The notes under the pieces are model-generated. The model was not told the origin of the DNA. It did not search any database and worked only from the letters and a program-made list of their open reading frames with translations. A DNA stretch of 64,000 nucleotides from Planctomycetota bacterium (GTDB taxonomy: Bacteria > Planctomycetota > UBA1135 > GCA-002686595). Position 1 is the first letter of the stretch, and each line of letters opens with the position of its first letter. This document shows, piece after piece, positions 17,510 to 35,456 of the stretch. Both the position numbers and the translations under genes were made by a program. Where the stretch lies: contig JBBDIB010000061.1 of assembly GCA_040880665.1 (NCBI GenBank), forward strand, positions 24,688 through 88,687. The letters are read 5' to 3'.

Positions 17510-18354
17510 CCGAATTCACGGGCCAAGCCCAACGAACACGGTCGGTCGTGACGCGCGCCTGGACGCTGGGCTTGCCGGCGCTCGGAACCTTGATCGGCTG
17601 CCTGGGCGCCGTTTGCGGCATCGGCGGCGGACTGTTCGCGACGCCGCTCTTGAACCTCGGGGTCGGGCTCGTCCTGACCACGGCGATCGCGACATCGCTC
17701 GTGATGGTGTTCGCGACGGCGCTCGCGGCGACGGTCGCCGAAGCGCTCTCGGGCGAGTCGCACCTCGTCTGGCCGCTCGTCTTCGCACTCGCCGCCGGTG
17801 CCTTCCTCGGAACGCGCGCGGGCTATCGCTTCGTGCAGCGCCTGGGCGTTGGGCGCTTGGTCTGGATCTTCGGGGGCTTTCTCTTGTTCGCCGGCGTGCG
17901 GCTGATCCTGCCGGGATCGACGCCGATCGAGCCGACGGCGCTGGACCTCGACGCCCGGTCGCTGACGACCGCGTTCGTCATCGGCCTCCTGGGCGGCGCG
18001 ATCGCGCCGATGCTCGGGATCGGCGGCGGCATCGTCATGGTGCCCGGCCTGGCGCTCTTCGTGGACGGCCTCGGCTTCGAGGGCGCGCGCGCCTGTGCAC
18101 TGGCGGCAGCGACGGTGGGAGCCTCGCGCTCGGCGCTGCTCTATGCGCGACGCGGTCGCGTGCAGTGGCGCTACGGCTTCTTGCTGGCGGGCGGCGCGGT
18201 CGTCGGCGCGGCGATCGGCGTGCAGCTCACGCACTTCGCCGGTGCCGGCGAGTTCGGCAAACGCTTCTTGGGCGTGCTGGTGATCTTCGTCTCCTTGCGC
18301 TACCTCATCGGCGCCTGGCGCGCGCAGCGGAGGCGCGGCGCGCGTCAGGCGTAG
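17506..18354 (+). CDS. TauE/SafE-family sulfite/anion exporter membrane protein
   Basis: Polytopic membrane protein with two GIGGG motifs (CGIGGGLFATPLL and MLGIGGGIVMVPGL). The GTG at 17506 overlaps the kinase stop, so the start is uncertain. Confidence 0.75.
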   Translation: MTEFTGQAQRTRSVVTRAWTLGLPALGTLIGCLGAVCGIGGGLFATPLLNLGVGLVLTTAIATSLVMVFATALAATVAEALSGESHLVWPLVFALAAGAFLGTRAGYRFVQRLGVGRLVWIFGGFLLFAGVRLILPGSTPIEPTALDLDARSLTTAFVIGLLGGAIAPMLGIGGGIVMVPGLALFVDGLGFEGARACALAAATVGASRSALLYARRGRVQWRYGFLLAGGAVVGAAIGVQLTHFAGAGEFGKRFLGVLVIFVSLRYLIGAWRAQRRRGARQA

Positions 18355-19655
18355 ATGCCGCGCAGCTTGTCGGCGGCGGCCACGCGCTCGACGGCCAGCA
18401 TGTTGGCCGCCATGCGGAGGCGCACGCCGTGGCGCAACTGCACCTCGCTGACCGCGCTCCACGCCTCGGTCATGAAGCGCCGGATGCGCTTCAGGATCAC
18501 CGGGTCGATCCACGAGAGGCCTTGGCGGTTCTGGACCCACTCGAAGTAGTCGACGACGACGCCGCCCGCGTTGGCGAGGATGTCGGGGACGACCGGAACT
18601 CCGTTGTCGTGCAGGATGCGATCGGCGAGCGCCGAGACGGGGCCGTGGGCTCCTTCGACGATCAGTTTCGCGCGCACGTCGGCGGCGGTGCGCGAGTGGA
18701 TCGCGTTGGCCGTCGCGCACGGGACCAGGACGTCGCAGGGCAGCGCCAACAGCTCCGCGTTCGTCAGCCGGGCGTGGTCGCCCGGCGCGTCTTCCAGCGT
18801 TCCGTGGGCGGCGCGGTACGCCATGATCGTCGGGATGTCGAGGCCCTCGAACTTGTAGAGCCCGCCCGACAGGTCGCTGATGCCGCAGACCTTGTGGCCG
18901 CCCGCGTGCAGGATGCGCGCGAGGTTGCCGCCGACCTGGCCGGCGCCCTGGATGATCACCTCGATCTGGCGGTCCTGGAAGCCGTAGCGCTCGACGCTCA
19001 ATTGCAGGATCGTCTGCAAGCCGATCGCGACCGATTGCTTGGAGAGGCGCGTGCCCGCCATGAAGAGCGGCTTGCCGGTGACGACGCCGTTCTCGGTGTG
19101 GCGTTCGTGGATCGAGACGGTGTCCATGACCCAGGCCATGACGGCTTCGTCGGTGCCCACGTCGGGTGTCAACACGTCACGGTCCGGGCCGATCACGTCG
19201 AGCAGCTCGGCCGTGTAGCGACGGACGGCGCGCTCGAGCTCGAGGCGGCTGCGCAACTTGGCGTTGATGCGGATGCCGCCGGCGGCACCGCCGAAGGGAA
19301 TGTTGAGGACGGCGCACTTCCACGTCATCCAAGCCGCGAGCGCGCGTAGCTCGTCGACCTTGAGCGTCGGCTCCAAGCGCATGGGGCCGATGAACGGACC
19401 CAGCCCCTGATGGTGTTGCACGCGATAGCCGTCGAAGACGTGCACCGTGCCGTCCTCGAGCATGACCGGCAGCGAGACCTTCAGCTCGGAGTCGGGCTTG
19501 CGCAAGACCGCGTAGTTGTTCGGATCGACGCCGACCAGATCGGCCGCCTCGTCGAACAGGCTCATCATCGTCGCGAACGGTGATTCGTCGTCCAGCGCCG
19601 GCGTCGCCGGGAGCGGGTCGTCTTCGAAGGCCGCGATCACTTTCGTCTTGCTCAT
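18345..19655 (-). CDS. Glu/Leu/Phe/Val dehydrogenase-family protein, divergent (two conserved active-site lysines absent)
   Basis: 436 aa from the ATG at 19655 (MSKTKVIAAF). Full-length homology to GDH, including the GxGxxG Rossmann motif (QGAGQVGG). It reads PFIGPMRL where GDHs have PxKGGxR, and FGGAAGG where GDHs have GGGKGG. Confidence 0.8.
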   Translation of the reverse strand: MSKTKVIAAFEDDPLPATPALDDESPFATMMSLFDEAADLVGVDPNNYAVLRKPDSELKVSLPVMLEDGTVHVFDGYRVQHHQGLGPFIGPMRLEPTLKVDELRALAAWMTWKCAVLNIPFGGAAGGIRINAKLRSRLELERAVRRYTAELLDVIGPDRDVLTPDVGTDEAVMAWVMDTVSIHERHTENGVVTGKPLFMAGTRLSKQSVAIGLQTILQLSVERYGFQDRQIEVIIQGAGQVGGNLARILHAGGHKVCGISDLSGGLYKFEGLDIPTIMAYRAAHGTLEDAPGDHARLTNAELLALPCDVLVPCATANAIHSRTAADVRAKLIVEGAHGPVSALADRILHDNGVPVVPDILANAGGVVVDYFEWVQNRQGLSWIDPVILKRIRRFMTEAWSAVSEVQLRHGVRLRMAANMLAVERVAAADKLRGIYA

Positions 19656-19660
19656 CGGGC

Positions 19661-20944
19661 TCAGGCGAAGATGCCGCGCATCTTGTAGACCGTGGCAACG
19701 CGGTCGATCGCGAGGATGTAGGCCGCGGTGCGCAGCGAGCACGAGTGCTTCTGCGACGTGCGATAGACCTCGTTGAAGGCCGTGACCATCGTCTCCTCGA
19801 GGCGTGCGTTGACGATCTCCTCGGTCCAGAAGTAGCCCATGCGATCCTGGACCCACTCGAAGTAGGAGACGGTCACGCCGCCCGCGTTGGCGAGGATGTC
19901 CGGCACCACGACGACGCCGCGCTCGGCCAACTTCACGTCCGCGGGCGCGGTCGTCGGGCCGTTCGCGCCCTCGACGATCAGTTGGGCCTTGATGCGATCG
20001 ACGTTCTTCGACGTGATCTGGTTCTCGGTCGCGGCCGGCACCAAGACCTCGCAGTCGAGGAACAGTTGCTCCGCGTTGGAGATGTGCTCGGCGTCGGGAT
20101 AGCCCGCCAGCCGCTTGTTCTTGGCCAGGTAGTTCAGGACGTCCGGAACGTCGAGTCCGCGGTCGTCGTGGATGGCACCCCACATGTCGGAGAGCGACAC
20201 GATGCGATAGCCCTCGCGGTGCAGGAGCTGCGCCCCGATGCCGCCGACGTTGCCCGAGCCCTGCACGACGACGCGCGCGTCCTGCGCGCGCAAGCCCATC
20301 GTTTTCAGCGCTTCGCGGCAGGTGATCATCACGCCGCGGCCCGTCGCTTCGCGGCGCCCGAGGCTGCCGCCGAGGTTCAAGGGCTTGCCCGTCACGACGG
20401 CGGTCGACGTGCGGCGCACGTGCATGGAGTACGTGTCCATGATCCACGCCATCGTCTGCTCGTTCGTGTTCATGTCCGGGGCGGGCACGTCGCGGTCCGG
20501 CCCCAGGATGTCCATGATGCTAACGGTGTAGCGCCGCGTGATGCGCTCGAGCTCGCCGTCCGACAGCTCGCGCGGGTTGCAGATCACTCCGCCCTTCCCG
20601 CCGCCGAAGGGGATGCCGACGACCGAACACTTCCAGGTCATCCAGGCCGCGAGAGCGCGCACCTCGTCCAGGTGTACGTCGGGCGCGAAGCGAATCCCGC
20701 CCTTGCACGGCCCGCGCAGGAAGTTGTGCTGCACGCGATACCCCCGGAAGACGCGAATCGTCTTGTCGTCCATCAGGACGGGGATCGCGACGGTCAACTC
20801 GCGGTCGGGCGTGCGCAGCACCTCGCGCACTCCGGCCTCCAACCCGAGCACGTCGGCGGCGGCTTCGAACCGCTCGGCCATCGCGAGGAAGGGGTTGAAC
20901 TCGTTGATCTCGAGCTGGGTCTCGATCGCCGTCGTTTCGGCCAT
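19661..20944 (-). CDS. gdh: Glutamate dehydrogenase (canonical motifs)
   Basis: 427 aa from the ATG at 20944 (MAETTAIE). Motifs [24 protein letters not shown] and QGSGNVGG are all present. Confidence 0.88.
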
Positions 20945-20978
20945 CGGTGTCGCCAGGGGGGGTCTGGGGTTGGGTGGA

Positions 20979-21121
20979 GGTCCGGTCGACGTGGTCGAGC
21001 CGGCGACGCGTTGGGCGCCGCGAGGAGAAGTCGACATCTCAACCGGCGCTGCGTCCGGGGGGAACCCTTCGACATCGATTTCCTGCGCGTGACGCCTCGA
21101 GTCGAGGTCGAAGGCTTAGGA
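20979..21121. repeat. 143-bp direct repeat, copy 1 (R1)
   Basis: Aligns by eye without gaps to 24438..24580, roughly four-fifths identical. Long identical runs include ccggtcgacgtggtcgagccggcgacgc, cgacatctcaacc, gcgtccggggggaaccct and cgacatcgatttcctgcg. It lies between the gdh start and the stop of the psi-gene at 21130. Confidence 0.8.
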
Positions 21122-21129
21122 GGTCGGGC

Positions 21130-21710
21130 TCACTCGAGAACGCAGCGGACGACGAGTCGGGCGTTCGAGCCGGCGGGCTGGGACTCGGGTTCGAACCGAA
21201 CGCTCCGGCCGCCGAGTTCGACGGGCGCGATCCGAAATCAGAGATCCGTTGCGTCGCCCAAGTCGAGGAGCGCGTGACCCGAAGCGTCCGTGCGCGCGAC
21301 CGCGGAGCGCTCCGCGTGAAGCCCGTCGGTCGTGGATCTCAGCACTTGGATCGAGAGGTCGATGCCGCGCCCCCCTGCGGGCAGGTCCAGGAACTGGAGC
21401 GTCACCGGCGATCGCTGGCCGACGAACACGAGCTCGGGCTTTCCGTCCGTCGTTGGGCGCGGCCGAAACTCCGCGATTCCAAGCCCTTCGACGGCCACGA
21501 CGAGCCGCTCGAGGTCCGACGAGATCCAACCTTGCCAGTACGCACCGCGCACGCCGACGGGCGGATCGGCGGGATTCGGCGTGCGCAGCTCGAAGCCTCG
21601 CCCGGGTTGCCCGTCGTGCCGTCGAACACTTCCAGCGCGACGTTGAGCGGTTCGGGACCCTCGAGCGTCACGTGTCCGTTGTCCGTCAGCACGTGCTCGG
21701 ATCGTCGCTC
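21130..21710 (-). pseudogene. 3-prime remnant of a paralogue of the 29671..32043 exported protein (frameshift plus in-frame stop)
   Basis: The pieces SEHVLTDNGHVTLEGPEPLNVALEVFDGTTG, FELRTPNPADPPVGVRGAYWQGWISSDLERL...LLDLGDATDL and, after a stop, FRIAPVELGG...VVRCVLE match the last ~190 aa of the 801-aa ORF product (DLWIKIAPIELGG...IVRCVVE). They are spread over two frames, with TGA replacing the Trp codon. Homology stops abruptly at about 21710, where the GC content drops. Confidence 0.8.
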
Positions 21711-21842
21711 TCAGAGAAACCACGCACACATCTTGACTTTGGCTCGATGCTGTTTCTAGTATGCGAAACCGCGCGGTGCTCATGGGCCGCACCTTGTGTC
21801 GTCTTCTGTGTGCCACTTCCAACCTACTACTCAAACATCACG

Positions 21843-22277
21843 ATGAGCTTCGTTCGACTCTCCATTTCCGCAATTGTGCTTTTGGTCGGAACTGCAATGC
21901 TGGGCTCTACACCGCTTGCTGCGCAAGCACAGATTTCTCCCGAGTGGGACTCGGAGTACTGCTGGACACAGTCTAGTCCCTCTGGGCCCGCACCCGCGAT
22001 CGTCGTCTTTGAGAAAAAGAAGGCCCCGGGAATTGGCGTCTACGACTACACGTGGTCGATGTACGCAAAAGACCCTGAAACCGGCGAACGCGGAGCACTG
22101 TTGCGTGCCGGGGACTTGGCTCCGACTATCGATCCGGACAAGTGGTACTACACAGAGGAGGACGCGAACGGGACTGTCATTAACGGCGGCCTCATAGAAG
22201 CGCAGCACGAGAGTAACAAGAAGTGGAGCTGGGCTCAGAACCAGGGCGGGACTGCTTCGGGTGAGCTAGCTTTATGA
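21843..22277 (+). CDS. Small secreted protein of unknown function
   Basis: 144 aa from the ATG at 21843. Signal peptide MSFVRLSISAIVLLVGTAMLGSTPLAAQAQ. Trp/Tyr-rich mature part. No family recognised. Confidence 0.5.
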   Translation: MSFVRLSISAIVLLVGTAMLGSTPLAAQAQISPEWDSEYCWTQSSPSGPAPAIVVFEKKKAPGIGVYDYTWSMYAKDPETGERGALLRAGDLAPTIDPDKWYYTEEDANGTVINGGLIEAQHESNKKWSWAQNQGGTASGELAL

Positions 22278-22365
22278 TGTATCGGCCTCTCCATGCGTTA
22301 TATTGGCTGGATGTGATCGTCGATGCATCTGGCAGGGTGCTGTCCACGATCTTTTCTGAGCTCAA

Positions 22366-24408
22366 GTGAAGTCTCTGCGCGTTGCTTGTGGCCTGTTTAT
22401 TGCGCTCCTTGCACTCGTGTGCTGGTTCGCTGCAGACACCGATCTGGTGCTTTCGCGACGCATTGGTGGCTCGAACGAATTTGAAGCGAATCCAGGTCGC
22501 GCTCATCAGTCAAATGCGAATGCGGTTCAATCCACGCTCATGGAGTCGCGGGAGATGGTGCGCGTGGACCGCTCGCCAGAAGATATTCCTGACGGGCTCA
22601 GCATTTTGGTGCGCATTGAAGGTGACCCTTCCTTGGTCAACTGCGTGCTGCCGCTGGAATTGACGCTGGGCCAAGAAGCATCAACGGAGCGCGAAGCGGT
22701 CTTTCACACGAAGCTTACCAGTCCGTCCGAAGCTGCTCGTCTATCGGGCTGTGCTGGACAGGTACTCAGGTACACCGCGACGAGCGTGTCGAGCAGTTTC
22801 GAGCAATCAGGCCTCGTGCAGACTTCGGCCGATGGGCGCGGGACGATAACGATCATAGTCAGCGTAGTCAAAGTCGGTGTAAGATTCGTTCGAACTCACG
22901 GAGATGCAGGTCAAGCCCTTTGGAGGAGTTGCGACGGCATCGAACTGTTTCCCCACCAATACTCGCCGCAACTCTTTGGGTTCGAGATCGGCGCGTTGGA
23001 GCGCGGAGGAGCCTTCATCTCGAGTGATCTAGGGGTTGCCTACTATGACCCACCCGCGGTGGCAAACCACCCGCAGGAGGCCGATCGGGTCGAGTGGCTG
23101 GCAGGAGCTGATGTCCGCTTCGTTTCAACCGTGAGTGACCTCAACTCGTTGCCGGTTGCAGCAGAATTTCTATTGCCCGCGTCTCCTCGTCCGTTCCGTG
23201 TAGCAACGATCCTGGAGGGCACCCGGTCTGGCTACCTGCAAGGTTTACCGGCGCATCGTTGTATCCGGGTGACGGCAGGGTCACCCCCAGTTAAGTCGTG
23301 GTACTTAAGGTTAAATGCGAACGAAGTTTACGAGTTATTCGTAGGGTCAATTGCTGGCTGCCCCGTCAAGTTCGCCGTGACTGATGGTCAGTCACAGCCA
23401 GTGCCTGGGGTGCTGCTTTTCATTCGCCCGGTCTCTGATGTGTCTGAAGCGTGCATTCACGATGACGCACTCAGATCGTTAGGCCAAGAATCCGTTAGGC
23501 GAGTCGCAACGGATGAGGGAGGAATAGCCAGTATTGAAGGTCTGTCCGAAGGGCGCTGGTCCGTCGGTTCCAGGCATGGAGAGGGCAGCGCGTTTGTTGC
23601 CCCTACAGAATTCGAGGCCGACGCAAAAGGAGTTCACCTTCATCTCGTTACTCAGGCAGGCCCGGGCTTGGTTGGCCGCATCGTGGGACCGAGTCAAGAA
23701 GGCCTGCCGAACTTCGAAGTCTTGCTTCGTGCGCACGACTCGACAACTAGCGTCCATGCAATCAGCGCGGCCGCGGGACGCTTCAGCTTTCCAGGGTTGG
23801 CTCCCGGCGAATACCAATTGATGGCCAGGTCCGCAGGGAGTCGATCCTACGCCGTCTGGGAAACGGTGATCGCGCCCGATCCAGATCTCCTAATCATCGT
23901 CGAAGCCAGGGCAGCCCTTCGCGGGCGAGTCATTGGAGCAGAATCGCTGCCTGAAGGAGAGACCTTCCTGACGTTGTACACGCGGGAGACGAGCGGTCGC
24001 TACCTGCAGGTGTCTCCCCACGTGGAAGTCGACCCGGCGTACGAACTCGTCCTCGATGTCCCGCCGCGGAAAGACATTTGTCTTACCTTTTCCTCCACGC
24101 GCGGCCTTCGGTCCGCCGTGTCGGTCGTCACGGCCCCGCCGGGCTCCGAGTCCACCTTCGAGATTAACCTCGCGAGTCCCTCGTTTGTCAAATTGACAGG
24201 TCATCCCCGGCGCCCAGCCAGCTACCAGCTCGTCCATGAGCAACTTGGTCTCGTCGCCACGGGCCAATTGATGCCCAAGGCGACTTCGGAGTTGCGAGTG
24301 CCCCGCGGCGCGTATATGTTCCACTCTAGCTCTTGGGGCAGCGAGGGGGCGTGGACGCAGTTTCCTTTCATCGCAACTGACGCCGTTGTGATCAAGGTGG
24401 GCGAATAG
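22366..24408 (+). CDS. Large exported protein with carboxypeptidase-regulatory-like (Ig-like beta-sandwich) repeats
   Basis: 680 aa with an N-terminal hydrophobic anchor (LRVACGLFIALLALVCWFAA). Segments such as GRIVGPSQEGLPNFEVLLRAHDS...AAGRFSFPGLAPGEYQLMARS fit the CarboxypepD_reg pattern. Lower-GC codon usage. Confidence 0.6.
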   Translation: MKSLRVACGLFIALLALVCWFAADTDLVLSRRIGGSNEFEANPGRAHQSNANAVQSTLMESREMVRVDRSPEDIPDGLSILVRIEGDPSLVNCVLPLELTLGQEASTEREAVFHTKLTSPSEAARLSGCAGQVLRYTATSVSSSFEQSGLVQTSADGRGTITIIVSVVKVGVRFVRTHGDAGQALWRSCDGIELFPHQYSPQLFGFEIGALERGGAFISSDLGVAYYDPPAVANHPQEADRVEWLAGADVRFVSTVSDLNSLPVAAEFLLPASPRPFRVATILEGTRSGYLQGLPAHRCIRVTAGSPPVKSWYLRLNANEVYELFVGSIAGCPVKFAVTDGQSQPVPGVLLFIRPVSDVSEACIHDDALRSLGQESVRRVATDEGGIASIEGLSEGRWSVGSRHGEGSAFVAPTEFEADAKGVHLHLVTQAGPGLVGRIVGPSQEGLPNFEVLLRAHDSTTSVHAISAAAGRFSFPGLAPGEYQLMARSAGSRSYAVWETVIAPDPDLLIIVEARAALRGRVIGAESLPEGETFLTLYTRETSGRYLQVSPHVEVDPAYELVLDVPPRKDICLTFSSTRGLRSAVSVVTAPPGSESTFEINLASPSFVKLTGHPRRPASYQLVHEQLGLVATGQLMPKATSELRVPRGAYMFHSSSWGSEGAWTQFPFIATDAVVIKVGE

Positions 24409-24437
24409 CCCTTTGCTCGACGTAATGCAAGGGAGAA

Positions 24438-24574
24438 GGACCGGTCGACGTGGTCGAGCCGGCGACGCACGTGGCGCCGCGAATGGAAGGCGACATCTCA
24501 ACCCGCGCGGCGTCCGGGGGGAACCCTGCGACATCGATTTCCTGCGGCGCGAGGTGCGAGTCGAGGCGAACGGC

Positions 24575-24580
<6 letters not shown>
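24438..24580. repeat. 143-bp direct repeat, copy 2 (R2)
   Basis: Counterpart of 20979..21121. It occupies the whole convergent intergenic space between the 680-aa ORF stop (24408) and the acr3 stop (24575), and includes the last two acr3 codons plus the stop (ggcttagga). Confidence 0.8.
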
Positions 24581-25591
<1,011 letters not shown>

Positions 25592-25651
25592 GACGTCGAG
25601 CGCGGTAGGAGAGTGGCGAGCGCCGCGTGGGACGGCGCGGTACGGGGTGGG

Positions 25652-26488
25652 TTAGCGATTCGGGATCATCAGCACGGGTCGGCCCGCTCTCTTGCTGAGG
25701 GCGCGCGCCGTGTGCCCCATGCCGGAATCGCCGCGACCGGCCTTGCCGACGACCAGCAGCGATGCGTCGCGCTCGCCGGCGAGACGCAGGATCTCTTCGC
25801 TCGCCTCACCTTCGACGACGAACGCCTCGCCCGTTCCTCCGCCCTGCGTGATGCGCGAGTGGACTTCGCCGAGGGCCGCCCGGGCCATGGTGGGCCAATC
25901 GGCAAAGCGTGCTCGGTCGTCCGCCGACGTCACGTGCATCACATCGACCCGTCCGCCGAGGCTTGCGAGTTCGATGGCTGCCTCGTGTACGGGCCGCGCC
26001 GCTGCCGTCAGGTCCGAGGCGACCAGGACGTGACGTAACGTGTTGCCGCAGGTCAACTGGCACCGGTCCCCAACGCCGTCGAGCGGCTCGATCCACTCGA
26101 TCAAGACGGGTACGGAGGAGCGACGTAGAACCTTGCGCGCGACGCTGCCCAGAAAGAGTCGTTCGAGGACGTTCTGGCTGCGGTTGCCGACGACGAGCAG
26201 GTCGACGCCGACCTCGGCCGCGCGCGCCGCGATCGAGGCGCCCACATCGCCGGCGGTTGCGACGTGGATATCGACGATCGTGCCGCGCGCTCGCAGCGGC
26301 TCCGCGAGCGCTTGAAGCCGTTCTCGCTGTCGCTCCTCCTCTCCGAAGGCGGGACCTTGTGCGTAGCCGACCTTCGCGAAGTAGACGAGCGACACGCGTA
26401 CGACCCCCCAGGTGGCGAGGTCGGGCGCGCACTCGAGCAACGGGACGTCGGAGTCGAGGTCGACGGCGATCAAGGCGTGTTGGAACAC
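25652..26488 (-). CDS. Universal stress protein (tandem Usp domains)
   Basis: 278 aa with two UspA-like halves (ALIAVDLDS...LLVVGNRS and VLVASDLT...[10 protein letters not shown]...PVLMIP). Confidence 0.75.
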
Positions 26489-28287
26489 GAGGACTCCTGG
26501 GGTACGTGGGGATGGTCGGGTTGCACGAGGCTCCGGAGTGCTGCGACGCCCGTCGGCTCGTCGGCCGACCAGGGCACGAGGAACACGCGCTCAGCGTGCT
26601 TCGCTTTCACCGCGCGGATCTCGGGCAGCTCGGCCGCGGCTCTGGCGCGAAGCAACGGATCGGTGGTGCCCGTCGCCGCGAGGCTGCGGTTGATGACCCA
26701 GCCATAGGGCTCGATCGCGGCGCGGCGCAGGTCCTCCTGCAGGTGCGCGGCTTCCTGGACGGGCGTCGTCTCCGCCAAGGTGACGATCACGACGCGCGTC
26801 TCGGCGGCGTCCTGGAGCCGCATGAGCGGTGTCCCCAGTCGACTGCCGGCGCCGGCCTGCCGCAGCGTCTCGCGGTGGTACGAACCCGCCGCGTCGAGCA
26901 GCAGCAACGTGTGTCCGGTGGGCGCCGTATCCATCACCACGATCTCGCGCTTCGACGAGAAGACGGCGCGCGAGAAGGCGTGGAAGACCGCGACCTCCTC
27001 GGTGCACGGCGAGCGCAGGTCTTCCTCGAGGAGCGCCAGCGCATCGTCGTCGAGCGTCGCGCGCGATCGCGCGAGGATCCGCTCGCGATAGGCTTCGGTC
27101 TCGGCCAGGGGATCGATGCGGCTGACGCGCAGGTGGGGCACCTCTTCCGCCAGCGTGCCCTCGAGGTGCGCGGCGGGGTCGGTGGTCGTCAGGTGGACGG
27201 GCAAACCGCGGCTCGCCAACTCGACCGCGACGGCGGCGGCCATGGTCGTCTTCCCGACGCCGCCCTTGCCCATGAACATGACGAGCCCGTGTCCGGCGGC
27301 GGCGACCTCGTCGACGAGCGACGAGAGCGGCGCGACGTTTTCCAGCACGTCGGCGGAGGCGACGCGCGGCTCGCTCAGGCCGTGGAACGGTGCTTGGTCG
27401 AAGAACGAAGCCAGCGCGTCGAGACCCACGAGGTTGTGCGGCTTCAGCGGCACTTCGAAGGAGGGCAGCGCCGCGAGGCCCCGAGGCATCGCCGCGAGCG
27501 CGGCTTGCCCGAGGGCCTCGAGCCGCAGCGCCAGGGCGTCGTCGCGATCGCTCGCGTGGAAGACGCCGTTGATCAACAGGAACTGGTTCGTGACGCCCAG
27601 CTTCTCCAGCTCGACGCGCGTTCGCTCGGCCTCGCTCAGCGCGCTGCGCTCGGCGCGCGTGACCAGGACGAGCGTCGTCTCGGAGGCGTCGCTCAACGCG
27701 GCGAGCGACCGCGCGTAGCGCTCTTGGCTGTTCTTCAAGCCCGACAGCGGCCCCAAGCACGAGGCACCGCGCTCGTTCGTCTCGAGGAAGCTCGTCCAAG
27801 CGGCGGGTAGCTGCAAGAGGCGCAGCGTGTGACCGGTGGGCGCCGTGTCGAAGACGATGTGGTCGAACTCGCGGGCGGTCGCGTCGCCGCTCATCAAGCC
27901 GGTGAACTCGTCGAAGGCGGCGACCTCGACGGTGCAAGCGCCGGAGAGCTGTTCCTCGATCGAAGCCACGGCGCTCGCGGGCAAGACGTCTCGAACCGGG
28001 CCGATGACGCGCTCGCGATAGGCGCGCGCGGCGGCCTCGGGATCGATGTTCAGCCCGAAGAGGTTCGGCTCGCCGGTGATCGGCGTCGGCGTCGCCAACA
28101 GCTCGGTCGCGAGCACCGCGTCGAGGTTCGATGCGGGATCCGTGCTGACGATCAGCACGCGCTTTCCGGCGCGCGCCAAGCCGAGCGCCGTCGCCGAGGC
28201 GGCCGAGGTCTTGCCGACGCCGCCCTTGCCCGTGAAGAACAAGAACGGCGTCGGCTGCGTGAGTCGCAGCAGTGTGTCGGTGCTCAT
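26470..28287 (-). CDS. arsA: Arsenical pump-driving ATPase ArsA
   Basis: Two homologous halves, each with a P-loop (FFTGKGGVGKTS; MFMGKGGVGKTT) and a DTAPTGHTLRLL/LLLL signature. The ATG at 28287 overlaps the arsD stop. Confidence 0.92.
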   Translation of the reverse strand: MSTDTLLRLTQPTPFLFFTGKGGVGKTSAASATALGLARAGKRVLIVSTDPASNLDAVLATELLATPTPITGEPNLFGLNIDPEAAARAYRERVIGPVRDVLPASAVASIEEQLSGACTVEVAAFDEFTGLMSGDATAREFDHIVFDTAPTGHTLRLLQLPAAWTSFLETNERGASCLGPLSGLKNSQERYARSLAALSDASETTLVLVTRAERSALSEAERTRVELEKLGVTNQFLLINGVFHASDRDDALALRLEALGQAALAAMPRGLAALPSFEVPLKPHNLVGLDALASFFDQAPFHGLSEPRVASADVLENVAPLSSLVDEVAAAGHGLVMFMGKGGVGKTTMAAAVAVELASRGLPVHLTTTDPAAHLEGTLAEEVPHLRVSRIDPLAETEAYRERILARSRATLDDDALALLEEDLRSPCTEEVAVFHAFSRAVFSSKREIVVMDTAPTGHTLLLLDAAGSYHRETLRQAGAGSRLGTPLMRLQDAAETRVVIVTLAETTPVQEAAHLQEDLRRAAIEPYGWVINRSLAATGTTDPLLRARAAAELPEIRAVKAKHAERVFLVPWSADEPTGVAALRSLVQPDHPHVPQESSCSNTP

Positions 28288-28661
28288 CAGCAGCACCGCG
28301 GTTGCTTGGCGACGGGCGCAGCTTCGTCGGCGCAGCATCCGCTCGCGGCGGACGCGACGCCGGCCCAGGTCGCGAGTTGGACCCGGGAAGGATACACGCC
28401 GCTGCTGACGACGACGTCATCCGCCTTGATCAGGGGCAACGCCGACGCCCCCCGATGCTCGAGCGCAGCCTGCGCGTCGGCGTCCCCGACGAACGCCCCC
28501 GGCTCCTGCGCGAGGTTGAAGCGCCGGACCGCGACGCCCTGGGCGGCGAGCCACTCCAAGTCGGCGGAGAAGCGCGCCAGGTCGGGATCGACCTCGGGTC
28601 CACAGACTCCGGTCGAGCAGCACATGGCGGGATCGTAGACGGTGATGTTCTTCGTGTTCAT
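28287..28661 (-). CDS. arsD: Arsenic metallochaperone/repressor ArsD
   Basis: 124 aa from the ATG at 28661. N-terminus MNTKNITVYDPAMCCSTGVCG carries the Cys12-Cys13-Cys18 triad. Cys-rich C-terminus. Confidence 0.88.
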   Translation of the reverse strand: MNTKNITVYDPAMCCSTGVCGPEVDPDLARFSADLEWLAAQGVAVRRFNLAQEPGAFVGDADAQAALEHRGASALPLIKADDVVVSSGVYPSRVQLATWAGVASAASGCCADEAAPVAKQPRCC

Positions 28662-28771
28662 CGGTGCCCCCTTGTAGCGGCCTTCGCCGCCTGTTGCTTG
28701 GGATGGTATCGGTAATCGTCGAAAGACGATGGCTGGGTCGTCGAGACGGCAGCTCACTTTGGAATGCGGTC

Positions 28772-29212
28772 TTAGGCCGGGAATTCCTCGACGTCGCCAT
28801 CGGACCGCACGACGCGCAGCGTGCCCTCGAGCTCGCACGCGCTCGCCAGCGTGTTGGTGATCGTGCCGAACAGACGCACGTTCTTGTGGAGCAGTGCGCA
28901 GCGCGAGGCGGGCTCGTCGCTCGCGACCTCGAGGACGTAATGCGCGCGAACGATCGCAGGTGGCGAATCGCGGCGCTCGAGCTCGATCTCCGCCTTCGCG
29001 CTCGAGTAGCTGAAGGGCAGGATGTGGCGGAAGCGTTCCACGTTCTTCAGCAGGCAGGCTGCGAGCGAGCCCGCCAAGAGGTGCGCGGGTCCCGGGACGG
29101 AGTCGCCCATGCCCCGACTCCCGTCGAAGGCGATCGTGGCTTCCAGCGTCTCGATCTTGGCCGTGCCATCCGGGACGTTGAAGCCCTTGGCTCGGTAGAT
29201 GCTCGTACTCAT
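28772..29212 (-). CDS. OsmC/Ohr-family protein
   Basis: 146 aa. PAHLLAGSLAACLLKNV and RCALLHKNV segments resemble the two conserved Cys regions of OsmC-like peroxiredoxins. Confidence 0.65.
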   Translation of the reverse strand: MSTSIYRAKGFNVPDGTAKIETLEATIAFDGSRGMGDSVPGPAHLLAGSLAACLLKNVERFRHILPFSYSSAKAEIELERRDSPPAIVRAHYVLEVASDEPASRCALLHKNVRLFGTITNTLASACELEGTLRVVRSDGDVEEFPA

Positions 29213-29228
29213 CGTGCGCCTCCCGACG

Positions 29229-29567
29229 TCATTTCAGCTCCTCGATCAGCGCGCAAAACAGGCCGATCGCACCCGGTTCGACGCAGTAGCAGACGCGCGG
29301 TCCCTCGACCTCGCCCCGGATGAGGCCCGCTTCCTTCAATTGCTTCAGGTGCTGCGACACCGTCGACTGCGCGAGCGGCAACTCGTCCACGATCTCACCG
29401 CACACGCACGTGTCGCGCCGCAGGAGCAACCGCAGGATCGCCACCCTGGCCGGGTGCCCCAGCGCCTTCGCGAGCCGCGCAAGCTGCTCGTTGGCATCTC
29501 TTTCTCGCTTCGGCACCACCAGCTTCGGCGAAGCCGGCGGGCAGCGGGTGAGGGTCTTCTTCGGCAT
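29229..29567 (-). CDS. arsR: ArsR/SmtB-family metalloregulator
   Basis: 112 aa. Metal-site CVCGEIV immediately before the HTH ([19 protein letters not shown]). First gene of the ars cluster. Confidence 0.88.
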
Positions 29568-29590
29568 GGGGGACTCGTTCTCGAGCGTTC

Positions 29591-29606
29591 ATCGTAGATG
29601 TACGAT
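29591..29606. promoter_or_regulatory. Candidate ArsR operator (perfect 6-4-6 palindrome ATCGTA-GATG-TACGAT)
   Basis: Perfect inverted repeat 24-39 bp upstream of the arsR start codon. ArsR/SmtB repressors bind dyad sites overlapping their own promoters. No experimental or consensus support is available here. Confidence 0.3.
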
Positions 29607-29670
29607 CTTCGCGGCGTAGGTCAAGTAGGAAAATCATCTGCGCGACTCGCACGAGCGCACCGCGGAACGC

Positions 29671-32043
29671 TCACTCGACGACACACCGAACGATGAGGGA
29701 GCCCTCCGACCCAACGGCCAGCAGCTCCGGCTCGAACCGAAGGCGCCGGCCTCCGAGCTCGATGGGCGCGATCTTGATCCAGAGGTCGGTGGCATCCCCG
29801 AGGTCGAGCAGAGCGCGACCCGACTCGTCCGCACGCACGACGGCGGATCGCTCCCCGTGCAGGCCGTGCAAGCCGTGCAGGCCGTTCGCCTTGGAGCTCA
29901 TGACGCCGATCGAGAGGTCGACGCCGCGCGCGGCTACGGGCAAGTCCCGGAACACGAGCTCGACCTGCTGGCGGTGCCCCACGACCACTCGCTGTGGGCT
30001 TCCGTCCGGCGTGCGGCGCGGCAGGAAGGCTTCCGTTCCAAGACCTTCGACCGCCGCCGTGAGCTGCTCGAGGTCGGAAGAGATCCATCCTTGCCAGTAC
30101 GCCCCACGCACGGCGACGGGCGGAGCGGCGGGATCATGGGTGCGCAGCTCGAAGGCACGCACGGGTTCGCCCGTCGTGCCGTCGATCACTTCCAGCGACA
30201 CGTTGAGCGGTTCGGGAGCTTCGAGCGTGACGCGACCGCCGTCGGTCAGCACGTGTCGAGAGGCAACGATCGGGTAGGCGGAACGCAGGTAGGGGTCCGT
30301 CGCGAGCTCCGGTGCCAAGGCGACCTCCACCTCGGCCGGCCCCGCGGCGAGACCGCGCGCGACGAAGTCCCCGGCTGAGTTCGTCGTGCCCGCGAGCGAG
30401 CGTCGCGTCGCGCCGATCATCCCAGGTTCGGAGATCGGGGCGAGCGCGCCGCGCGGCGACTCAGGCCAGATCCGGACGGACATCCCCGGCAGCGGGCGTC
30501 CGCTCCGCGAGCGTACGGAGAACGTCGTGTCGATGGACTCGACCAGAACGACGTGCAAGGCCTCCGCCGCTCCCGTCATGGAGAGCGCACGGTTGCGGCT
30601 GACGGCGACAGGCGAGTAGCCCGGCGCCGCGACTTCGAACGAGCCGATGTCGAGCGCCAGCGGTAGCCGGATGTGCCCTGTCGCGTCCGCCGCGAAGACT
30701 CCGCTCGAAGTCGCGGCGCGCGCCGCCGTGATGGGGGATCCACCCAAGTCGACGACGCGCACGAGTTGGTGCTCCGCCGACCGCAGCGCGAGCGTCGCGC
30801 GCACGTCGCGCTCGTTCGCGGCAACCTCGGCCTCGTCGAACGCGCCGCACGAGTTGTGCGCTCGAAGCCAGATCTTCCGCTCGCTGGGCAGTTCGAGGGT
30901 GACGGGCGAGCCCGCGGTGAGAGCGATCTGGTGGCGAGCGAGCGACGGCTCGAGCTCCGTGCCAAGTGGCGCTTCCTCGACGCCGAGCACGAGCGTGGCG
31001 CCTTGGGAGCAACCGGTGACATCCTCGCACGTGATCGTCGCCGACCGTCGCCCCGGCAACGCGACCGCGTCACCGGCTACTTGCGACAAGCGCAGGACGC
31101 CGGGAAACGTCGTCGGTGAGGTCACGAGCAACGGCTCGTCGTTTTGCACCCACGACGGCACGACCAGCGACGCGGAATCCGGCGCCGCGCGAGCGATCTC
31201 GTACCCGTCTGGCGACGCGAGAATGACGCCGTTCACCGGCGTGATCGCATCCATTTTGGTGAAGTACAGACTGCGTCCCGCCGCGATCGAGCGCAGGACG
31301 ACATGCACCGTTTCCTTTGGCGGGCCACACAGGGAAAGTTCTGCGCGCGCGAACTGCGGGTGCAGAAGGACGGCGGTCCCGTTCTCACACGGACAGGAAG
31401 TGAACTCCGCGAGGCCGTTCGCGTCGGACATCACGGTCAACTCCGGTGCTGCAGCCACCGTCCCCTCGGCGCGGCGAGGCAGCCAATGAGCTCGAGCACC
31501 TTCGATCGGATTGCCGCCGGCGTCGCTCACCCAGAAGCACCTGGAGGTCAACCTTTGCACCCAGAGGACGAGCTCCTCGCCGCGGAGAACTTCGAAGCTC
31601 GATTCGACCGCCATCCAGGCATCGTCCGTCGAGCGCAGGCTCCAGCGCCCCGGAGCGACTCGCAGAACTCCGTTTGCGTCGGCTGTCGACGCGCTCTCAC
31701 CCGCGACGCCCGAGAGTACCCAACGCGATCCAGCCGCCGGTCGCATGTCTCCAGATGAGAGCAGTTGCACGTTACCACTGCCAGAGTCGCTCGCTGGCAC
31801 GCCCTGCACCCGCGCGACGACCGGTTCGCGGCCCCGCAGTCGTGTTCCGGCAGCTTGCGTCGCGCCGCTGCGCGCATCCTCGCCGGACACATCTCTCGAT
31901 CGAGTTGCTCCAGTGAGCTCGACCTCGTGTCCTCGCCGCGCGACGGTCAACGCGGTCCAGGCCACCAACCCGCCGAACACCGCGACGGCTACCAGCCACC
32001 GCAACGCACGTGAGCCGCGAAGGAACCGCTGCCCGGAAGTCAT
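29671..32043 (-). CDS. Large exported/membrane-anchored protein with carboxypeptidase-regulatory-like repeats
   Basis: About 790 aa (ATG at 32043; TTG at 32076 is possible). N-terminal anchor ALRWLVAVAVFGGLVAWTALTV. Repeated beta-sandwich-like modules. Its C-terminal ~190 aa are paralogous to the psi-gene at 21130..21710. A 9-bp x3 microsatellite (29855..29885) encodes GLHGLHGLHG. Confidence 0.65.
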   Translation of the reverse strand: MTSGQRFLRGSRALRWLVAVAVFGGLVAWTALTVARRGHEVELTGATRSRDVSGEDARSGATQAAGTRLRGREPVVARVQGVPASDSGSGNVQLLSSGDMRPAAGSRWVLSGVAGESASTADANGVLRVAPGRWSLRSTDDAWMAVESSFEVLRGEELVLWVQRLTSRCFWVSDAGGNPIEGARAHWLPRRAEGTVAAAPELTVMSDANGLAEFTSCPCENGTAVLLHPQFARAELSLCGPPKETVHVVLRSIAAGRSLYFTKMDAITPVNGVILASPDGYEIARAAPDSASLVVPSWVQNDEPLLVTSPTTFPGVLRLSQVAGDAVALPGRRSATITCEDVTGCSQGATLVLGVEEAPLGTELEPSLARHQIALTAGSPVTLELPSERKIWLRAHNSCGAFDEAEVAANERDVRATLALRSAEHQLVRVVDLGGSPITAARAATSSGVFAADATGHIRLPLALDIGSFEVAAPGYSPVAVSRNRALSMTGAAEALHVVLVESIDTTFSVRSRSGRPLPGMSVRIWPESPRGALAPISEPGMIGATRRSLAGTTNSAGDFVARGLAAGPAEVEVALAPELATDPYLRSAYPIVASRHVLTDGGRVTLEAPEPLNVSLEVIDGTTGEPVRAFELRTHDPAAPPVAVRGAYWQGWISSDLEQLTAAVEGLGTEAFLPRRTPDGSPQRVVVGHRQQVELVFRDLPVAARGVDLSIGVMSSKANGLHGLHGLHGERSAVVRADESGRALLDLGDATDLWIKIAPIELGGRRLRFEPELLAVGSEGSLIVRCVVE

Positions 32044-32231
32044 GGCCGCCCGTCGGTCCACCCCGTGATCTTGCAAGCTGCTGGTTCAGCGCAAGCGCCG
32101 AGGCCAGCGATCCCAACGCGCCGCGCCCGATGACGACTTTCGCTACCCATGCACACGATCGTAGAGCTTCTGGGGTCTCCCGAGGCATCGTCGAGTGGTC
32201 ACTTGGTGAACTCCTACCGCGCGTCTGGATG

Positions 32232-32545
32232 CTGAGGGGCGGCAGGCTGCGTAGGATTCGGGATTGCATGAATGCTCGGCGACACACAGGACGTGCCACG
32301 GACGCTTTGCGCCATCTCTGGGTGCGGGCGCCCAACTGGGTCGGGGATCTCGTGATGGCGACGCCGGTGCTGGAGGCCTTGGTGGGGAGTTCGCGCTTCG
32401 AGCGCGTCTCGATCGGTTGCGCGCGCACTTGACCGGCGTGCTCGACCGGCTGCCGTGGGTGGATCGCGTGGTGACGTTCAAGGGTGCACGCGACGAGGTT
32501 GCGGCGCTCGGACGCGCGGCGCCGGATGGGATCTTGCGCATGGGG
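32232..32545 (+). pseudogene. Duplicated 5-prime fragment of the GT9 heptosyltransferase gene (frameshifted, truncated)
   Basis: MNARRHTGRATDALRHLWVRAPNWVGDLVMATPVLEALVGSSRFERVSIG matches the N-terminus of the intact gene at 35631. A stretch of about 115 bp is nearly identical at DNA level (32311..32425 versus 35673..35788). A 1-nt deletion follows, and homology (LPWVDRVVTFKGARDEVAALGRAAPDG) continues in another frame. The fragment ends where the low-GC DNA begins. Confidence 0.8.
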
Positions 32546-32765
32546 GCCTCTGGGAGGGATCTAGCGCGTCATCGCAGTTTTCACTGAAGGAGCCTCGCCA
32601 GGTAAAAGTTCTGTATCGAAGTGCAACCGGTTCGGCGGCTTCGCCTAGCTTAGGCTGAGATCTACTGGAACTGTGCTCGCCGTGGGCGCCAGGGCAAGTG
32701 GCTCGCTGGGTTCTTGTGTACGCTAAAATAGGTTTCGTCCTCAGTTCACCCTTTTCGGGGTTCGC

Positions 32766-34349
32766 ATGTTGGGAAGGATTTTCCACCTAGCTCAATTGTT
32801 CGCAGTGAATCGGTACGCATGTGTTGTGTGCGCCGGATTTGCCATATCGCAGCCATCGTGCGCCCAGCTTTTTCAGTTGCGCGAGCTCAACTTCGGAAAC
32901 CCTGGGCCGGTGTATATAGATGGTGAGCTGGGCCTCGTGTATAAAAAACCACACTATCATGAGGATATATCAACTCCATTAGACTCCTGGGTTGACGTTT
33001 TCCCTATGGATGATGTTAACGATGGGAAGGATGCGAGTGTGCCCATGGTGTATGGGCCAGGAGAACGCCCAATCCCCGTGTTCGTGGAGTTCTACGCGTT
33101 CAGCCCTGACCCTTTAGAGGTCTACCATGTCTTGGTCCGGGATTTGCAGCTCAACAATACTTTCGAGGGTGTCTTGGCTCCAGGACCCTGCGCGGGGCTA
33201 GTGGGCATCCCTGCTGTGTGCTATCGTGGCACGCTCACGGAATGTGAATACGTGCAAAATTTCCCTGAGGGTATCAAGTTCTACCCTAACTACGAGTTTG
33301 TTATCGAAGTGCATACGGGGGACCTGCAGCAAGATCCAAGCCCGTGCCCCGTCTATGACACTCCTGTAGCCAACACTGGAATGAGCACAAACAAAGTCTA
33401 TGTGCTAAGAACGGGAACAACAGCCGAGCAGCAGGTGCCGTGGGAGTCTGTTTGTGAGCTGTCATGCATTGCTGCGGATGATGATAACAAGCGTGATGAG
33501 ATCCTGTTCTCGCTCAAAGAATATTTCGAAACAGCACAGATCAATCGCAAGTCCCGAGATGGTCGATGGAAGCCTGATGGGTTGAGGCTTGGCTACTGGA
33601 CTGATGGTTACGAAAGCCAGTGGCTTGCTCGCATCTCTGATCCGAGTCAAGATGGGTTGTTGCAAACGGACACTGGTAGCGGGACTTGCGGAGCGTGGGC
33701 TTTCCTGTTTTTTGCATGCGCGAGGGTTCAGGGGCTTGCTTTGGAGCCCATCGATTTTAGCGCGCCTAGCGGGAATGGGGACATTTTTGGCGGTCTATTG
33801 ACATATCCGTATCCAGTACATGGTATTCCGGGGACTCATCCAGCCAACAGATTTTTTGTGGAAAATGTTGTGATTGGAAACACAACTCCCCCTGGAGATC
33901 CAAATCAGCCACATAACCCACCCTGGAACCTAGCCTTGTATGGCGGTCCGGGAATGCCCAACCCTCCAGGCTCAAACCCAAACGTCGGGCTAACATACGA
34001 TGACGGGATTGCTGGTCAAAACACTGCAAACCCCGAGAGGCAGATGTTTTCAAATCATTGCCAGGTATTTTTTAGCGCAAGAAATGCCGGAGCCGCGAAA
34101 ACGCTCGTGCTGCTAGATCCGTCATACCAAAAATCCGTTGTGGCCCAAACTCCCTCCTATGATCACTCTACGCAACTTGCCATTTTGTGGCAGATGCATC
34201 TCAGTTTTCAAAACGCTTGGATTCCGGCCTTGGCGTGGATCAATACGTCCGGGTCGAGTGATGCGAGCCTTGCCGCTTCTAGGGCCACGCTGGATCCATC
34301 GCACCCGCTGTGCTATGTTGGGTCTACGTTTCCAGCGGCGAATCAATAA
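32766..34349 (+). CDS. Exported protein with possible transglutaminase/papain-like Cys-His-Asp core
   Basis: 527 aa with a signal-like N-terminus. GSGTCGAWAFLFFACARVQGL resembles the transglutaminase-core GxCxxFAxLFxxLxRxxGI motif. Downstream, NHCQVFF and LVLLDPSY could supply the His and Asp. The Cys-to-His spacing is longer than in typical members. Confidence 0.45.
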   Translation: MLGRIFHLAQLFAVNRYACVVCAGFAISQPSCAQLFQLRELNFGNPGPVYIDGELGLVYKKPHYHEDISTPLDSWVDVFPMDDVNDGKDASVPMVYGPGERPIPVFVEFYAFSPDPLEVYHVLVRDLQLNNTFEGVLAPGPCAGLVGIPAVCYRGTLTECEYVQNFPEGIKFYPNYEFVIEVHTGDLQQDPSPCPVYDTPVANTGMSTNKVYVLRTGTTAEQQVPWESVCELSCIAADDDNKRDEILFSLKEYFETAQINRKSRDGRWKPDGLRLGYWTDGYESQWLARISDPSQDGLLQTDTGSGTCGAWAFLFFACARVQGLALEPIDFSAPSGNGDIFGGLLTYPYPVHGIPGTHPANRFFVENVVIGNTTPPGDPNQPHNPPWNLALYGGPGMPNPPGSNPNVGLTYDDGIAGQNTANPERQMFSNHCQVFFSARNAGAAKTLVLLDPSYQKSVVAQTPSYDHSTQLAILWQMHLSFQNAWIPALAWINTSGSSDASLAASRATLDPSHPLCYVGSTFPAANQ

Positions 34350-34358
34350 GGAGACGCC

Positions 34359-35456
34359 ATGATAAGGATAGCTTATGGGCTTTGTGGCTTCGCCTCCGTA
34401 CTTTTTTGCTTGCTCTCTCTCTATGCTGAGTCGAGATGTGCTTTGCCGCAGAACGAGCCCGCCACTGGCAAGGAAGCATTTGCCTGGGAGGGTGATCGTG
34501 CGCTAAGCATAAGGATCGTATCGGACGAGCTGGACGTTTGCTTAGGGCAGATGATAACGATCAATGGAGAGCCGCTCGGCTTGCGTCCATCTCAGCAGCT
34601 AAGCCAGGAACGTGATTGCGAATGGGGAGCTCGTCACTACCTTTCTTTGTCTTCGTGTTACAGCAGTCAAAGAGACGAAGCATTTGTGGCCACGCTCTCC
34701 GGCGAAGGCTTCATACGAGATATGGAAGTTGTCGCATTGGGGCATGACAGCGCCGGCGAATGGAGTGAACGGCGAAGGTGGGGGCTAGACACAATATTCA
34801 ATAGCGCTGGTATGCCGACTCAGCCGACAAGACTCCAGGTCCTAACGGATGAATACGGCAATCCAATGCTCTTGTATGCATGCTCAACGGCCTCAATTGG
34901 GCTGCTAGATCTGTCGGAGGAGGAAAATCGTGTAAGCCATGGGGTAGAAGGCTTTCCGCGTAGCACGAGGAGGGCCTTGTGGACAACGGAAAGTTACGGC
35001 CTAGGCGTTGCTTGCTCGACCGGAATGCATGGTCTAGCGATACTTTGCAATGCCCGTGATATCTTAAGTTTACACCTCTTGCTGGGCTCCCCTAGTCTCG
35101 GATGGAGAGAGGCGAGGCTTGCCGGCGCGAATATTGACAACTTGCCCGCCAATCAAGAATCCATGAGCGCGGATGACAGTCATGTGTACTGGGTCGGATC
35201 CCGGGGGGATGCCACCGTTCAAATCATGCGCGCATCTTTGAACGTTGAGGCCGGTATTCTGTTCGGCGAGCCTCATTATGATCATTCAGTCGTTCTCCAC
35301 GAGGTGGAGTCGCTGTCGCTAGCTGCGCCAGGCACACTGCCCTCAGACTACTGGTTGGCAAGTACTTCAAGCGGAGTCCAATTGCTGACGAGAGATGGTG
35401 GCGTAGATCTGCACCTTCCTGGGAATGATGATGCTTGGGAGGTGTTGAGCGACTGA
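34359..35456 (+). CDS. Exported hypothetical protein
   Basis: 365 aa with signal peptide MIRIAYGLCGFASVLFCLLSLYA. It begins 10 bp after the preceding ORF. No family recognised. Confidence 0.45.
   Translation: MIRIAYGLCGFASVLFCLLSLYAESRCALPQNEPATGKEAFAWEGDRALSIRIVSDELDVCLGQMITINGEPLGLRPSQQLSQERDCEWGARHYLSLSSCYSSQRDEAFVATLSGEGFIRDMEVVALGHDSAGEWSERRRWGLDTIFNSAGMPTQPTRLQVLTDEYGNPMLLYACSTASIGLLDLSEEENRVSHGVEGFPRSTRRALWTTESYGLGVACSTGMHGLAILCNARDILSLHLLLGSPSLGWREARLAGANIDNLPANQESMSADDSHVYWVGSRGDATVQIMRASLNVEAGILFGEPHYDHSVVLHEVESLSLAAPGTLPSDYWLASTSSGVQLLTRDGGVDLHLPGNDDAWEVLSD

Follow-up and report, generated by a model that had tools for sequence, protein, structure and literature searches.

Islet A is a segment of low-GC DNA (20979 to 24580) in the window, i.e., the whole 64,000-nucleotide stretch analyzed here, which comes from contig JBBDIB010000061.1 (C61) of a Planctomycetota bacterium (assembly GCA_040880665.1). 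It lies between gdh2, a gene of the glutamate dehydrogenase family, and the acr3 end of an ars operon, and is bracketed by two copies of a non-coding direct repeat, unit U (left copy U_L, right copy U_R). On balance we favor the view that islet A is a recombination scar, in which diverged versions of the accessory region between gdh and a heptosyltransferase gene were spliced together by one illegitimate and one homologous junction, in the manner of homology-facilitated illegitimate recombination (HFIR) or of a Campbell-type insertion. As such, it is an ordinary, known kind of recombination scar and does not reveal a new mechanism. The genome (G000) is a draft of 3.65 Mb in 106 contigs, 84.8% complete, and the relatives used for comparison were 60 genomes, all of other genera.

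A sequence-only reading of this DNA had described an ungapped direct repeat of 143 bp with about four-fifths identity and perfect runs of 13–28 nt, which was borne out by the alignment: 20979–21121 and 24438–24580 agree at 118 of 143 positions (82.5%), and their perfect runs measure 28, 18, 18, 13, 10, and 10 nt, while the identity of random in-register 143-mers drawn from the window is 28% ± 4.5%, with a maximum of 47%. Gapped BLAST widens the pair to 157 bp (20972–21128 and 24431–24587; 85% identity, E 1e-39 to 1e-41), which is the extent of U as used here. U_L (20972–21128) is non-coding and is located immediately 3′ of the stop codon of a dead gene fragment, psi-X, and 28 nt upstream of the gdh2 ATG. 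U_R (24431–24587) begins 22 nt past the stop codon of P0002, the second gene of the islet, and provides the stop codon of acr3 (TAA, 24575–24577, minus strand); U_L keeps the same triplet, unused, at 21116–21118.

The 143-bp pair is nevertheless an incomplete account of what is duplicated, since psi-X belongs to the same block. psi-X (21130–21697, minus strand) repeats, as a dead copy, the final ~190 codons of gene X, to which it is 65% identical in amino acids and ~75–78% in nucleotides, and its lesions comprise a 1-bp deletion near 21608, a change of TGG to TGA at 21238–21240 and an 18-bp deletion. Gene X itself (29671–32076, minus strand) is intact and encodes an exported protein of 801 amino acids with weak Pfam matches to Ig-like and CarboxypepD_reg domains; its 3′ end pairs with psi-X, and a homologue search with its C-terminus returned only X itself. 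U_L and psi-X (20972–21697) form a single contiguous block of ~730 bp, that is, the unit plus the 3′ 570 bp of X, whose second copy is made up of U_R and the 3′ end of X (last 190 codons), parted from each other by 24588–29668. Within the left block, the likeness to U_R ends at 21128, where the likeness to the X stop region (29669) begins. Since U_L is contiguous with psi-X, and the two together match U_R plus the X 3′ end, it is X, not acr3, that the unit natively flanks on the 3′ side. The earlier description of the right copy as the natural 3′ flank of acr3 was thus correct as to the acr3 stop codon, which the copy includes, but not as to its origin: the unit is that of X, and acr3 just ends there. 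The 157 bp are the conserved non-coding 3′ flank of X, probably its 3′ untranslated region (UTR) together with a terminator hairpin.

The DNA that parts U_R from X is the ars operon block (24588–29668, minus strand, 5.1 kb; Pfam), which fits exactly between U_R and the X stop codon. Its genes, all on the minus strand, are arsR (29229–29567), an OsmC-like gene, arsD, arsA (26470–28338), a tandem-Usp gene (25652–26488) and acr3 (24575–25591), and its composition is host-like (tetranucleotide r 0.94). The left copy lacks the ars genes: U_L adjoins psi-X directly there and the uninterrupted arrangement is preserved, so that this copy retains an "empty-site" picture of the point at which ars was inserted. 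The repeats at islet A are copies of resident chromosomal sequence, and U_L and psi-X are continuous with gdh2.

The two edges of the duplicated block are of different kinds. One falls at the limit of a gene unit, right behind the conserved hairpin of U, and the opposite one is an abrupt mid-gene break (21696–21700), at which the identity in the in-register alignment drops over 5 nt (21695–21700) from ~85% to the background level. We infer from this pattern that 21696–21700 is the illegitimate junction between psi-X and the DNA that follows it, cargo A (21701–24430, 2.73 kb). Cargo A is compositionally foreign: the lower GC content noticed earlier was confirmed at 0.580 against 0.690 ± 0.019 in random 2.7-kb host segments, and in tetranucleotide usage it correlates with the genome at 0.70, as opposed to 0.90 ± 0.03 for random segments, none of which, out of 300, was as low (minimum 0.72). 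It carries two plus-strand genes and a sigma-70-like promoter match at 21733–21762. P0001 (21843–22277) encodes an orphan of 144 amino acids with a signal-peptide-like N-terminus, is single-copy in the genome and gave no match in Pfam or PHROGs. P0002 (22366–24408) encodes an orphan exported protein of 680 amino acids with a signal-like hydrophobic start and CarboxypepD_reg/prealbumin-like repeats at residues ~330–660; a homologue search returned only P0002 itself, and a deep profile-free search against 1.8 billion representatives gave domain-level Ig-repeat matches only, without a full-length relative. The fold matches of P0002 and X, together with the adjoining heptosyltransferases, suggest that the islet lies in a variable cell-envelope region.

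The absence of an integrase, a transposase, a tRNA and terminal inverted repeats, claimed from inspection of the letters, was upheld by dedicated scans. All cargo open reading frames were compared with Pfam and PHROGs, here and at the three further loci described below; no integrase or transposase match was found in islet A, and no tRNA in 15000–36000. The inverted repeats of islet A are weak (14–30 nt, 70–88% complementarity), and none of them lies at the boundaries. A transposon, insertion sequence or miniature inverted-repeat transposable element (MITE) was rejected on these grounds, since boundary inverted repeats are missing and the direct repeat consists of 157–730 bp of host-like DNA.

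How such an arrangement might arise can be proposed as follows. One version of the region would have read gdh2, U, X, and of it U_L and the last 190 codons of X would remain; the other would have read low-GC genes, U, ars operon, X. A fragment carrying cargo A, U, ars and X from a diverged relative would have met the resident gdh2, U and X, although the mirror image, with the gdh side incoming, is possible too. An illegitimate junction would have formed at ~21697 inside X and the other junction by homology, so that the resident U and X 3′ end would stay behind as a dead duplicate. In the HFIR variant the homologous exchange would take place outside the duplicated stretch, with a linear fragment from a related strain; in the Campbell variant a circularized molecule of U, psi-X and cargo A would integrate by a single crossover inside the duplicated stretch, within U, where a perfect match of at most 28 nt is available. 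Both variants give the same product and the sequence cannot separate them. Host RecA and an end-joining or microhomology step would suffice, and a dedicated recombinase would not be needed; two Ku-family genes in tandem (C83:56657–57975) and ComEC (C84:8780–9658) are present in the genome, which makes end joining and DNA uptake at least plausible. The diverged-relative source of the second version, the direction of transfer and the enzymes belong to the conjectural part of this scheme.

Immediately beyond X the same geometry is met again. Islet B (32278–35905) consists of a dead gene piece, low-GC orphan genes and an intact gene, in that order. Its left repeat, psi-Y (32278–32541, plus strand), is a dead copy, with a 1-bp deletion, of the first ~88 codons of Y (35641–36683, plus strand), an intact GT9 heptosyltransferase gene (Pfam Glyco_transf_9), and between them lies cargo B (32545–35640, plus strand, 3.1 kb, GC 0.54) with two orphan genes (32766–34349 and 34359–35456). 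Homology is lost sharply at 32530–32545, and the other repeat edge is the Y start-codon region. Perfect runs of about 60–62 and 47 nt inside the repeat (expected number 2e-3) suggest a tract of conversion or crossover. The order of the whole region is gdh2, U_L, psi-X, cargo A, U_R, ars, X, psi-Y, cargo B, Y, with gdh2 (19661–20944, minus strand; Pfam ELFV_dehydrog 1e-79) as the left core flank and Y as the right one. Two further genera of this family (genomes G018 and G006) have, after the gdh pair, a GC-rich spacer of 0.9–1.2 kb and then the Y homologue, and this spacing identifies 20950–35600 (14.6 kb) as lineage-specific accessory DNA, within which islets A and B are two adjoining scars. 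No similarity to the unit was found in the gdh2–Y spacer of the other genera.

For a genome-wide survey, the whole genome was compared with itself by BLAST and scanned for low-GC islets. Of the 26 islets of 1.2 kb or more, four (A, B, C19, and C2) lie between sizeable direct repeats of host genes; C17 and C29 are weaker cases, with repeats of 54–68 bp. At C19 (27161–37029, L030) a DcuC transporter gene has its 3′ 790 bp repeated, with 95% identity, around a cargo of 7.7 kb (GC 0.56); the homology begins exactly at the DcuC stop codon and ends sharply at 27952. The C19 cargo includes two fragments (29337–29598 and 35346–35460) of the gene to the left of the scar, and a 5′ fragment of the neighboring gene within this cargo shows 31 differences, distributed 21/6/4 by codon position. 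At C2 (11874–17316, L031) 1.3–1.5 kb of a DPP-IV peptidase gene are repeated (82% identity) around a cargo of 1.8 kb. The cargos of the four loci gave no recombinase match in Pfam or PHROGs and no common sequence when compared by blastn and tblastx, and we regard the similar spacings of 3459, 3363, and 3364 bp as coincidental. The cargos were also searched for leftovers of the gene parts that are missing from the broken copies; there were none of X, Y, or DcuC, and those of DPP-IV alone were found. A gene-unit edge opposite a mid-gene break, as seen at A, B, and C19, is what would be expected if versions with different neighbors were joined by one in-register and one out-of-register junction; duplication and a later, unrelated insertion would arrive at it only by coincidence. 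The earlier proposal of a Campbell-type or homology-facilitated insertion is thus strengthened as an inference by three further loci of the same geometry, while the anatomy on which it had been built was incomplete. None of the outcomes named beforehand as contrary to an insertion footprint arose either: the unit is not multi-copy, the compositional shift holds formally, and the islet is present in no relative.

Whether the broken gene ends were imported or decayed in place was approached through their divergence. A dead fragment made in place is expected to show, against its intact partner, a pairwise ratio of non-synonymous to synonymous divergence (dN/dS, omega) of at least ~0.5, with differences not concentrated at third codon positions. 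For the DcuC pair dN/dS is 0.146 (dS 0.16) and the differences are 10/3/32 by codon position; for the DPP-IV pair it is 0.25–0.33 (dS 0.5–0.6), with no stop across 356 codons; for the X pair it is 0.40 (dS 0.52; differences of 0.16/0.21/0.34 by codon position); and for the Y pair, of 87 codons, it is 0.66 (dS 0.21). The C19 repeat is a mosaic, with dS 0.017 over the 147 codons by the mid-gene junction against dS 0.387, with omega 0.13, over the 116 codons by the stop codon, and it contains a perfect run of 383 nt (expected number 8e-9). Such a mosaic is not attainable by a dead fragment in place and implies that a diverged functional allele was brought in; C19 is accordingly a recent join of the resident allele with a diverged functional allele of the gene end, and the youngest scar. 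In the DPP-IV pair 19 polarized amino-acid changes are assigned to the fragment and 5 to its intact partner, which indicates some relaxed evolution afterwards. psi-X shows no drift toward AT (GC content at third codon positions 0.824 against 0.819), and its halves differ in dS (0.32 and 0.65). Islet A can be read as an older example of the process that is still fresh at C19.

Several observations weigh against this reading. The omega of psi-X, 0.40 ± ~0.08, is below the floor of 0.5, but by only ~1.2 standard errors (SE), and together with the codon-position pattern of the X pair it is formally compatible with duplication in place followed by decay. C2 has the look of a pair of complete tandem copies in which low-GC DNA has replaced an inner part of one, since the second DPP-IV copy is nearly complete (amino acids 17–561 and 670–717, stop-free) and its middle is swapped for ~1.5 kb of low-GC DNA; a history of tandem paralogues fits this locus at least as well. 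C74:1-3112 and C88:27029-30347 hold direct repeats of ~1 kb, 84% identical and 2.1–2.3 kb apart, with host-like GC content between them, and these are tandem paralogues without cargo. The unit has only 12% mismatches plus indels against a proportion of synonymous differences (pS) of 0.38 at the adjoining synonymous sites, which the model does not predict. Neither single version of the locus was seen on its own, and neither a donor nor a congener was found, in the collections searched, where the best metagenome match to gdh2 has 75% identity; exact-protein look-ups of acr3 and gdh2 gave no matches.

These points bear above all on an old tandem duplication in place, of U and X and likewise of Y, DcuC, and DPP-IV, whose copies would have stayed functional for long until low-GC DNA landed in the redundant copy or in the spacer and removed part of that copy. 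We consider this history unlikely, though worth serious thought. The association of repeats with cargo would then arise only because insertions are tolerated in redundant copies, a notion to which we give the same limited weight. It is the better reading of C2, where both ends of the second copy are retained around the low-GC segment, and it draws further support from the cargo-free paralogues on C74 and C88, from the GT9 genes, which are tandem paralogues in this family, and from the omega of psi-X lying so near 0.5. At the window, however, the order of A and B would require a triplication and two replacements, each ending exactly at a duplication junction; cargo ends coincide with repeat edges at A, B, and C19; the two dS values inside the C19 repeat leave it without a uniform age; and identities of 95, 87, and 71% inside one locus misfit a single duplication age. 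Tandem duplicates are, moreover, quickly lost by RecA while they are near-identical, and most bacterial paralogues reportedly arise by transfer. That the unit is instead a functional element placed at two sites, i.e., a structured RNA, a terminator cassette, an operator or an element like the repetitive extragenic palindromes (REP) or MITEs, and that its bracketing of the cargo is incidental, seems improbable. Its low divergence beside faster synonymous sites would agree with this, as would a 22-nt hairpin, CCGGTCGACGTGGTCGAGCCGG, at the gene-distal end, which is perfectly kept in both units (20982–21003 and 24441–24462), and two internal (T/G)CGACATC motifs per unit (21031 and 21069; 24490 and 24528), in both of which the same T to G change occurred in parallel. 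Yet the genome holds only two copies (a few unassembled ones being possible in this draft), with a next-best match of E 0.02 over 22 nt, and the unit is absent from the 60 relatives, which removes the dispersed REP/MITE-like element once suggested. The riboswitch proposed beside it fared no better: an Rfam covariance scan (cmscan) of 20500–25000 on both strands gave 0 matches at E ≤ 5. The folding z-scores of the units against shuffles are −2.16 and −0.20 on the minus strand and −0.03 and −0.60 on the plus strand; single- and two-sequence folding gave no consistent structure, and the consensus fold, made from two sequences only, shows three compensatory pairs. U_L also runs on into 570 bp of duplicated coding DNA, unlike a self-contained element. 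A small conserved reading frame in the unit was rejected, as the only ATG frames common to both copies show ~2 synonymous against 8 non-synonymous changes. A constraint on the unit in its role as X terminator is in keeping with the scar that we favor; the excess conservation of the unit could reflect such terminator or 3′ UTR constraint, perhaps a promoter region of gdh2, or later conversion.

Very improbable, in our judgment, is a degenerate site-specific element of the kind represented by e14 or phage 21 at icd, which would have carried a replacement gene end and later lost its integrase. The geometry is the same, with an intact gene bearing a substituted end, a cargo and the displaced native end as a pseudo-fragment. 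Against it, no integrase, excisionase or phage-like gene was found in the four cargos with Pfam and PHROGs; the cargos are mutually unrelated; the four targets, at both 5′ and 3′ gene ends, have no common core sequence; no tRNA lies in the scanned part of the window; and no identical att core was found in U, where mismatches are scattered over the entire unit and the longest exact run, of 28 nt, is a chance expectation at such divergence (E ~0.1). It is most improbable of all that the arrangement is an artefact of metagenome assembly, in which two strain variants, or a free circle, were threaded through a common repeat. The genome is a metagenome-assembled one in many contigs, and the long exact runs in islet B and C19 would allow an assembler to switch. 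At islet A, however, a Logan contig from an independent assembly (L022, 4780 bp, SRR27977663) is 100% identical to 19859–24638 of the window, spans both units, and reads through gdh2, U_L, psi-X, cargo A, and U_R into acr3. Since U_L and U_R have no 31-mer in common, the k = 31 path across both units is unambiguous, and since the junctions of psi-X with cargo A and of cargo A with U_R carry no repeated sequence, they must exist in the reads.

The recombination scar favored here has close counterparts among known systems. HFIR was defined experimentally in naturally transformable species, usually with a deletion (de Vries and Wackernagel, 2002; Prudhomme et al., 2002; Meier and Wackernagel, 2003), and, as far as it is portrayed in two later accounts (PMC5361080; PMC2884548), it is alike in its one-sided homology, its combination of a RecA junction with an illegitimate one and its independence of an element recombinase; an illegitimate end inside the recipient anchor gene leaves a truncated resident copy beside the newcomer. 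Here the process is deduced from its scar, and of the traits that bear on competence ComEC alone was seen. HFIR was also proposed for the effector-immunity arrays of the type VI secretion system (T6SS; Kirchberger et al., 2017; PMC5361080) and discussed as an origin of dimorphic loci (PMC2884548), and the displacement of rhs C-termini was explained by circular molecules of a core fragment and a tip, with distinct GC signatures (Jackson et al., 2009; PMC2935791). The rhs and T6SS arrays likewise show an intact gene followed by dissociated fragments, all of which retain part of the conserved gene; the conserved parts differ in GC content from the incoming ones, and the arrays are recombinase-free. 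They are, however, toxin-immunity systems, in which a variable tip lies within the protein and displacement has a selective logic, whereas here housekeeping or accessory genes with no relation to each other (X, GT9, DcuC, DPP-IV) were targeted, at either the 5′ or the 3′ end, and the cargos are separate orphan genes with no sign of toxin or immunity. A Campbell single crossover of a non-replicating circle gives flank, homology, cargo, homology, flank, with direct copies of the homology and one truncated gene copy, as here; its textbook repeats are identical, while those at hand are 75–85% identical, the circle is hypothetical and U offers no perfect match above 28 nt. The prophages e14 and phage 21 regenerate their target gene at icd and carry an integrase and a defined att core. 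Their substituted gene end, displaced native pseudo-fragment and similar but non-identical repeats resemble islet A, in which neither an integrase nor an att core was found.

With islet A and its counterparts, one genome illustrates that strain-specific genes of foreign composition can enter a chromosome without the machinery of mobile elements, the scar being a dead gene end on one side and a regenerated gene on the other. Recognition of such scars guards against taking repeats of this kind for att sites, MITEs or riboswitches. Their recurrence in four of 26 islets raises the prospect that one-sided homologous recombination may be a common, under-reported way for lineages such as Planctomycetota, poor in plasmids and known integrative elements, to acquire genes. 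A bolder idea, which we regard as quite doubtful, is that accessory low-GC genes of this planctomycete lineage travel routinely as recombinase-free units of gene end and cargo, which RecA would excise as circles between the gene-end repeats and which relatives would take up and re-insert by homology at the same gene. If so, the circle model of rhs tips would extend to ordinary genes, islet A would be an old member of a genome-wide class comprising at least 4 of the 26 low-GC islets, and U would be kept as both a terminator and a recombination handle.

Two minor observations concern the flanks of the region. Two gdh-family genes lie in tandem at 18345–20944 and are kept as a pair, beside a TauE-like gene, in two other genera of the family, with identities of 75–78% and 46%. 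On the opposite side, ARAGORN calls a tRNA-Gly(CCC) at 37004–37084 (minus strand), inside the coding region of a second GT9 heptosyltransferase, which is probably a false positive in GC-rich DNA.

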